From the IMG/VR virus record IMGVR_UViG_3300029132_000006, positions 1 through 54,653 of that record: DNA of 54,653 bases. One strand, given 5' to 3'. Both the position numbers and the translations under genes were made by a program. Shown one piece after another: positions 1-98 of this stretch; within the stretch, counting starts at the first letter, position 1; every line of letters begins with the position of its first letter. This stretch comes from a virus. The notes under the pieces were generated by a model. The model searched no databases. It was not told the origin of the DNA and saw only the letters and a program-made list of their open reading frames with translations.

Positions 1-98
1 GTCTATTCCTAATAGGTCTGCCATATAGCAAGCATACGGAACTGTCTGTCTGTCTGTCTGTCTGTCTGTCTGTCTGTCTGTTAAGATTGTGCTGTTAG
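1..98. repeat. Terminal overlap copy 1. It is identical to 54556-54653, which marks a circular or terminally redundant assembly junction.
   Basis: Base-by-base comparison of both window ends, including the same 10-unit CTGT run. Confidence 0.9.

Follow-up and report, generated by a model that had tools for sequence, protein, structure and literature searches.

The window, that is, the whole 54,653-nt stretch of viral DNA analyzed here, carries a perfect (CTGT)10 run on its plus strand, equivalent to (ACAG)10 on the minus strand (Table 1). An exact 98-nt terminal overlap (1-98 identical to 54556-54653) contains this tract and shows the contig to be a circle that was opened at the tract, with a unique length of 54,555 nt; a second copy of (ACAG)10 lies inside the overlap. 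Reading the minus strand across the circular junction revealed a single ORF of 403 codons belonging to the PAPS-reductase family. It runs from an ATG at 498..496 through a PP-loop (SFSGGKDS) and the tract to a stop codon at 53842-53844. The original prediction, that a minus-strand (ACAG)10 joins both halves of one 403-codon ORF, was thus correct in coordinates, frame and codon count. No other tetranucleotide run of at least four units is present in the window. We estimate the chance of a perfect 40-nt period-4 run in 54.5 kb as 54,555 x 4^-36, or approximately 1e-17, in agreement with the earlier claim that ten such units lie beyond chance in a sequence of this size.

Within the ORF, the tract spans codons 140-153 and is translated as TDRQTDRQTDRQT, i.e. 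(TDRQ)3T. It is an uninterrupted repeat inside a coding sequence with a unit length not divisible by three, as contingency loci are. As anticipated, none of its three frames contains a stop, the sole codons being ACA, GAC, AGA and CAG. Unit changes not divisible by three were predicted to uncouple the two halves of the gene, and alleles built in silico behaved in this way. Those with 7, 10 or 13 units encoded ORFs of 399, 403 and 407 aa, respectively. Alleles with 6, 9 or 12 units terminated at TAG 11..9, and those with 5, 8 or 11 units at TAG 54499..54497. The OFF stops fall 11 or 33 codons past the tract, leaving a fragment of 157-194 aa which includes the first half of the fold alone. The window itself, with 10 units, holds an ON allele.

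Table 1. Features of the tract, the interrupted gene and the surrounding phage genome (window coordinates)
Feature	Position	Strand	Basis or remark
(ACAG)10 tract, variable element; T-D-R-Q x3 + T	42..81	−	sequence and variation in relatives
Tract, second copy in terminal overlap	54597..54636	−	sequence
Exact terminal overlap with 54556-54653	1..98	.	sequence identity
Gene 5' part, codons 1-166: ATG, PP-loop, tract	1..498	−	ORF and profile match
Gene 3' part, codons 167-403 and stop; second half of PAPS_reduct domain and Cys cluster C-x4-C-x2-C-x3-C	53842..54555	−	ORF, profile match, selection data
Sigma-70-like motif TTGGCA-16 nt-CACAAT, ends 4 nt before tract	86..113	−	motif comparison
TAG ending N fragment at unit number 0 mod 3; product ends ...DRQFRMLAIWQTY	9..11	−	in-silico alleles
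TAG ending N fragment at unit number 2 mod 3; product ends ...DSSVCLLYGRPIRNRQENRQAERTVQKFADGGYP	54497..54499	−	in-silico alleles
AAA_23 ATPase	2065-3999	−	first in module order
RecT	862-1746	−	after AAA_23 ATPase
118-aa ORF, no assigned function	501-857	−	between RecT and reductase gene
MBL-fold hydrolase (phrog_392)	53098-53829	−	directly downstream of reductase gene
SSB	50928-51359	−	farther downstream
Anti-repressor	6510-7307		
Endolysin	8808-9914		
Tape measure protein	16477-20454		
Major head protein	24858-25889		
Portal	26615-28207		
Large terminase	29014-30741		
Integrase	43752-44939		

The gene content of the window is that of a temperate siphovirus from the human gut, and the reductase gene sits in its recombination/replication module. 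Relatives were likewise found in human-gut metagenomes, with related contigs assigned to Blautia or Lachnospiraceae genomes, and the neighborhoods of the reductase gene among them are mosaic and variable. In Dulem virus 39, a cytosine methyltransferase lies upstream of the reductase homolog, and a YycJ-like protein lies downstream after one hypothetical gene. The MBL-fold hydrolase of the window gave a weak match to PDB 7t28, a 'putative metal-dependent hydrolase' (E=0.0014). Elsewhere, a pair of tRNA genes lies together with a 46-bit hit to the Rfam int-alpA sRNA family at 34165-34818 (minus strand), adjoining a replication-initiation gene at 33160-34113. An AT-rich stretch between divergent gene blocks (36346-36907) holds several tandem repeats with periods of 6, 15 and 24 nt, as well as a 45-nt unit present twice at 36817-36907; it may be a regulatory region or origin.

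Profile searches placed the interrupted gene within the PAPS reductase family. The Pfam PAPS_reduct model (PF01507) matched at 55.4 bits against a cutoff of 22.5, above its gathering score, in two stretches flanking an inserted region. The first lies in the N-terminal part, which also bears the SGGxDS PP-loop, while the best covers residues 219-350 (profile positions 80-172), such that the tract falls in the middle of the domain and splits it. The gene was assigned to phrog_424 in PHROGs. Of the gene families originally proposed, PAPS_reduct stood, while DUF3440/IbrA and DndC found no match. A Pfam scan at E<=0.01 found no DUF3440/IbrA; apart from PF01507, NAD_synthase alone was hit, and marginally so (21.4 bits, cutoff 21). 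CysH models scored far too low (TIGR00434, 25 bits vs 165; PRK02090, 24 vs 154), and the sequence has no C-terminal ECG[LI]H motif. No full-length match was obtained with the DndC, SspD or BrxP defense models; BrxP (29.7 bits) and SspD (23.6 bits) aligned locally over 40-50 aa at the PP-loop. No NCBIfam family exceeded its cutoff, and neither a PDB sequence search nor PADLOC returned a specific relative or system for the protein. An AlphaFold2 model built from a shallow 29-sequence alignment was poor (pLDDT 38.6).

Megablast with a 6 kb query against GenBank phages gave no match, and tblastn recovered only relatives below 50% identity, all without the insert. This insert of ~70 aa begins with the tract and is clade-specific, being absent from distant homologs in bacterial genomes and named phages. 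Compared with the PAPS reductase/PP-loop ATP pyrophosphatase superfamily (CysH, CysD, DndC, SspD, BrxP), the window protein shares PF01507, SGGKDS and a C-terminal Cys cluster, but passes no subfamily cutoff, lacks the CysH ECGLH motif and carries the tract-led insert. DndC, SspD and BrxP are PP-loop enzymes of DNA-modification systems. Because these distant relatives act in such systems, and because related phages put a like tract in a C5 DNA methyltransferase gene (see below), we infer that the enzyme acts on nucleic acid or in counter-defense.

Comparison with homologous phage genes, which the original prediction had put forward as a check, revealed that the repeat is not fixed. More than 100 related gut-phage contigs have the tract at the same site, with 2 to 29 units, the longest being that of L099. 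Within the loci found by protein scan, ~68 of 80 related IMG/VR loci carried it there with 2-20 perfect units. Homologs more than 90% identical differed at the tract by exact 4-aa steps. For example, proteins with TDRQT were 395 aa long, those with TDRQTDRQT 399-400 aa, and the window protein and P0120, which have TDRQ three times, 403 aa, corresponding to 4, 7 and 10 units, respectively.

Length also varied among nearly identical genomes, again as in contingency loci. Fourteen locus pairs with 0 mismatches over ~819 nt of flank differed in the tract by a mean of 3.9 units, the extreme being 7 vs 19 units (a difference of 12). The most diverged pairs differed by a similar mean of 4.45 units. 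The flanks of L014 are exactly those of the window, yet it has 7 units rather than 10; a metagenome scan with the window-specific flank returned this contig as the sole match. A protein with the window-specific flank LGSQKSNSTIL (P0010) had 4 units. These differences were observed between assemblies, i.e. between consensus alleles of different samples, and a single IMG/VR dataset supplied many of the contigs, which are also linked by phylogeny; our counts and P values are therefore indicative only. Across these assemblies, the comparisons show tract length evolving far faster than point substitutions.

To what extent these lengths translate into ON and OFF states was assessed in two samples. 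Among protein-scan loci with both halves, 26-27 of 76 were frameshifted exactly at the tract. Because this list favors ON alleles (full-length matches rank first), a second sample was collected independently of frame, by matching the left-flank DNA exactly. It contained 12 ON and 30 OFF distinct alleles, the OFF alleles being shifted exactly at the tract (30 of 42). Tracts of at least 5 units were ON in 9 of 37 cases (24%; p=0.30 vs the neutral expectation of one third). Because this fraction is indistinguishable from one third, the population data alone show no selection on the ON/OFF state. A linker that is merely polymorphic in length was rejected as an explanation, two thirds of the alleles being out of frame.

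Selection on the gene itself was evident. None of 72 distinct homologous C-terminal halves (0/72) contained a stop in its own frame, and the N and C halves had dN/dS values of 0.13 and 0.05, respectively. Tracts that had shrunk or been interrupted to fewer than 5 perfect units were ON in 16 of 18 cases, compared with 19 of 54 long tracts (Fisher p=8e-5). In the P0070 clade (P0056, P0065-P0071 and others) and P0100, which have a 3-unit or 5-unit tract, a second indel restored the frame. This compensating change lies 20-100 nt downstream of the tract and leaves 12-32 aa in another frame (TDRQFHMLAMSDPLG in the P0070 clade; TDGSVCLLYGRPVRNRQENKQAKRTVQEFADG). Taken across these assemblies, ON and OFF alleles coexist in nature in a gene under purifying selection, as at contingency loci. 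The slipped-strand phase switch originally proposed is strongly supported by these comparative data, namely by hypervariable length, mostly out-of-frame alleles, and purifying selection on both halves.

A scan of viral contigs for (ACAG)8 identified the tract at the same position in very divergent PAPS-reductase homologs from many datasets, in the context ..GARKY-L-T-(8-10 variable aa)-IL-(TDRQ)n-..PY... Other units occupy the same site, including (GAAC)13 in L048:3375-3426 and (ACGA)10 in L060:3406-3445, both read as TNER, and (CAAG)10 in L182:87-127, read as KQAS. These alignments show a tetranucleotide tract kept at one site over deep divergence with three different units. Because the 4-nt periodicity stays while the unit and peptide change, selection probably acts on mutability rather than on the encoded peptide.

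Upstream of the tract lies a promoter-like motif. Of 46 flank clusters with a mutual identity of <=75%, 28 had an exact TTGACA starting 28-46 nt upstream of the tract, mostly at −32 or −33, against a background of 1.1%. In gut clades, a −10-like hexamer (CACAAT, TACAAT, TAGAAT, TAAAAT or CATAAT) follows 16-17 nt later and ends 3-4 nt before the tract. The version in relatives can be written TTGACA-16/17-[C/T]A[C/T]AAT, whereas the window has TTGGCA-16-CACAAT (113..86). The motif occurs in the reductase gene, a methyltransferase gene and small ORFs, in differing frames and with differing repeat units; loci bearing it include L036, L038, L078, L081, L099, L109, L134, L182 and L211-L282. Within-clade conservation is uninformative on the motif, because all 90 nt upstream of the tract are almost invariant within each clade. 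It is possible that the motif is an internal promoter sparing downstream genes from polarity when OFF, a promoter driving instability, or a protein-binding site.

Tracts of the same kind were also found in other genes of related phages. Many relatives encode a C5 DNA methyltransferase (motifs ELFAGYGSQ, FPCTDLS, ENV and QNRER) ~3 kb downstream of the reductase gene, a gene which the window lacks. Two tracts interrupt it, (ACTT)2-5 in the stretch from motif I to motif IV and (ACAG)2-16 within the variable region (e.g. L011:5906-5925 and L011:6403-6458; also L082-L194, context B). For the ACAG tract, the in-frame class comprised 24 of 51 alleles. For the ACTT tract, 4 units is the modal state and is in frame. 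No SSR was found in the window's own methyltransferase (48441-49268). Small ORFs formed another group, with a ribosome-binding site and ATG located inside the cassette of motif and repeat and a reading frame running into (ACAG)n or (GTCA)5-15. Such loci include L278:~7680-7782, L262:~2667-2710, L257:~5510, L276:~430 and L081:19-171, with (GTCA)5-15 or (ACAG)24.

Altogether, we favor the reading that the tract is a hypermutable SSR acting as a translational frame switch, i.e. a contingency locus, in an accessory PP-loop gene of a gut temperate siphovirus (probability roughly 0.7). Slipped-strand mispairing at replication would add or remove 4-nt units. With the flanks of the window, unit numbers of 1 mod 3 (4, 7, 10, 13 and so on) would yield complete enzymes that differ in the length of their TDRQ linker, while the other two classes would lead to an early stop and a fragment of 157-194 aa. 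Switching is likely to take place within single phage or lysogen populations and to be reversible. It may hedge between hosts in which the enzyme activity helps and hosts in which it is costly.

Two alternatives accept the tract as real but assign it another meaning. The gene could be made of two parts with the tract as their coupling joint, an internal promoter immediately before the tract, perhaps with restart at nearby ATGs, yielding the C half at any tract length, such that OFF would be a split rather than a null state. This would account for the −35/−10-like motif, whose spacing to the tract is fixed both in the window and across unrelated genes, and for the invariance of synonymous sites within TTGACA: across divergent reductase homologs, its Leu codon was TTG in 14 of 14 (20% of Leu codons elsewhere in those ORFs) and its Thr codon ACA in 12 of 12. 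It would also suit the stronger constraint on the C half than on the N half. Furthermore, ATGs at 22-24 (MADLLG..) and 54511-54513 (MGVIPSG..) on the minus strand lie in the C-half frame, with the OFF stops at 9-11 and 54497-54499 following 10-11 nt on, and restart could occur there. However, no Shine-Dalgarno sequence precedes either ATG, and neither is universal: one is replaced by Ile in some close relatives, the other in a clade that is more divergent. The tract cuts the PAPS_reduct domain in its middle, and the more divergent tract-bearing homologs lack the −10-like hexamer. We consider this arrangement improbable.

Similarly unlikely is a neutral reading, in which an unstable microsatellite sits in an accessory gene that the phage can dispense with, OFF alleles mark the onset of gene loss and the ON/OFF change has no adaptive role. 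Long tracts, ON in 9 of 37 cases, do fit the neutral one third, the mosaic and variable neighborhoods resemble those of dispensable morons, and the window genome holds no further SSR. Decay is nevertheless difficult to reconcile with C-terminal halves free of stops and dN/dS of 0.05-0.13, or with lineages that lost the long tract being almost always ON, some having repaired the frame by compensating indels. The persistence of a tetranucleotide tract at one site over deep divergence, in three units, and its recurrence in several other genes also argue against neutrality. Least probable by far is an assembly artifact at circle closure, affecting the tract as a whole or its number of units. Although the tract lies inside the 98-nt terminal overlap and several related contigs end in it, more than 100 independent assemblies carry it at this site in the interior of a contig, on which ground we rejected this explanation. 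The tract is also mirrored in independently predicted proteins from several sources, and at 40 nt it is well under the length of the overlap.

The break itself was originally read as a sign of length heterogeneity among reads, a claim that is weakly supported. The circle was indeed opened at the tract, and 4 of 80 related contigs end in theirs (L052, L056, L061 and L071) against ~0.2% expected by chance by our estimate; several of the L092-L188 loci end at the tract as well. However, these four tracts have at least 13 units (at least 52 nt), a length at which a k=55 assembly would break even if all reads agreed. By our reasoning, the branch points of a simple n vs n±1 bubble would not fall at the ends of the 98-nt overlap in the window. 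Heterogeneity among reads is a possible cause of the break in the window, where the tract takes up 40 nt of this overlap. In practical terms, such tracts fragment short-read assemblies, and related genomes are truncated or have the gene split into two called ORFs.

A broader and more tentative proposal, which we hold to be possible though less likely than not to be right in full, is that abundant temperate phages of human-gut Lachnospiraceae carry a 'phasome'. A modular cassette would be present in several accessory genes and kept at its site across deep divergence, with its promoter-like part functional, as a stochastic switch for DNA modification or counter-defense. The cassette would consist of a sigma-70-like TTGACA, a 16/17-nt spacer and a −10-like motif, followed after 3-4 nt by any tetranucleotide repeat (ACAG, ACGA, CAAG or GTCA). 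Its genes would include the PAPS-reductase-like enzyme, the C5 DNA methyltransferase and the small ORFs starting at the cassette. The promoter-like part might maintain transcription of downstream genes in the OFF state, or might itself drive instability.

Tetranucleotide contingency loci of Haemophilus influenzae, Neisseria and Moraxella include lic1A (CAAT)n, mod (AGTC)n and modM (CAAC)n. The phage locus resembles them in its long perfect 4-nt repeat within an ORF, in frame-shifting unit changes, in ON and OFF alleles among close relatives, and in the presence of such tracts in several genes of the genome family. It differs in that its carrier is a temperate phage of gut Firmicutes rather than a host-adapted Gram-negative pathogen, and in that its tract occupies an inserted linker in the middle of the gene, not a position close to the 5' end. 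In our literature search, tetranucleotide contingency loci and phasevarions were found in bacteria only. For phage genes, the same search turned up no report of tetranucleotide switches, the SSR phase variation reported for phages being homopolymeric only.

Phasevarions depend on phase-variable DNA methyltransferases, mostly Type III mod (PMC5909438, PMC2667262). The related phages are comparable in that a DNA methyltransferase gene of theirs holds both ACAG and ACTT tracts. In contrast, the switched gene of the window does not encode a methyltransferase, and the enzyme of the relatives is of the C5-cytosine type, outside Type III systems. It also likely protects phage DNA rather than regulating a host regulon.

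Hypermutable SSRs in phage genes have precedents. In Campylobacter phages, polyG tracts give rise to mixed populations (Sorensen et al. 2021, Cell Rep 35:109214, as cited in PMC12823448). Those tracts share with ours a hypermutable SSR in a phage gene, but are homopolymers in receptor-binding genes of lytic phages, whereas ours is a tetranucleotide in an early-region enzyme gene of a temperate phage. In T2 and T4, a short homopolymer in agt has been read as bet-hedging against host defense (Gomez, Barrick & Waters, bioRxiv 2025, PMC12633550); that study scanned homopolymers of at least 6 nt only. A frameshift-prone repeat in a phage gene is common to both cases. In contrast to homopolymers of at least 6 nt with low-frequency variants, the tetranucleotide runs described here extend over 40-116 nt, and most natural alleles are OFF.

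If the switch is real, phages or prophages would run stochastic ON/OFF programs like those of host-adapted pathogens, and would do so in widespread temperate phages of the human gut. The genes under such control would be a PP-loop enzyme and, in related phages, a DNA methyltransferase. One hypothesis is that switching them would hedge between restriction that attacks unmodified DNA and systems that attack modified DNA. The switch would also mark out a large phage family whose enzyme is usually annotated as an 'auxiliary metabolic' PAPS reductase.
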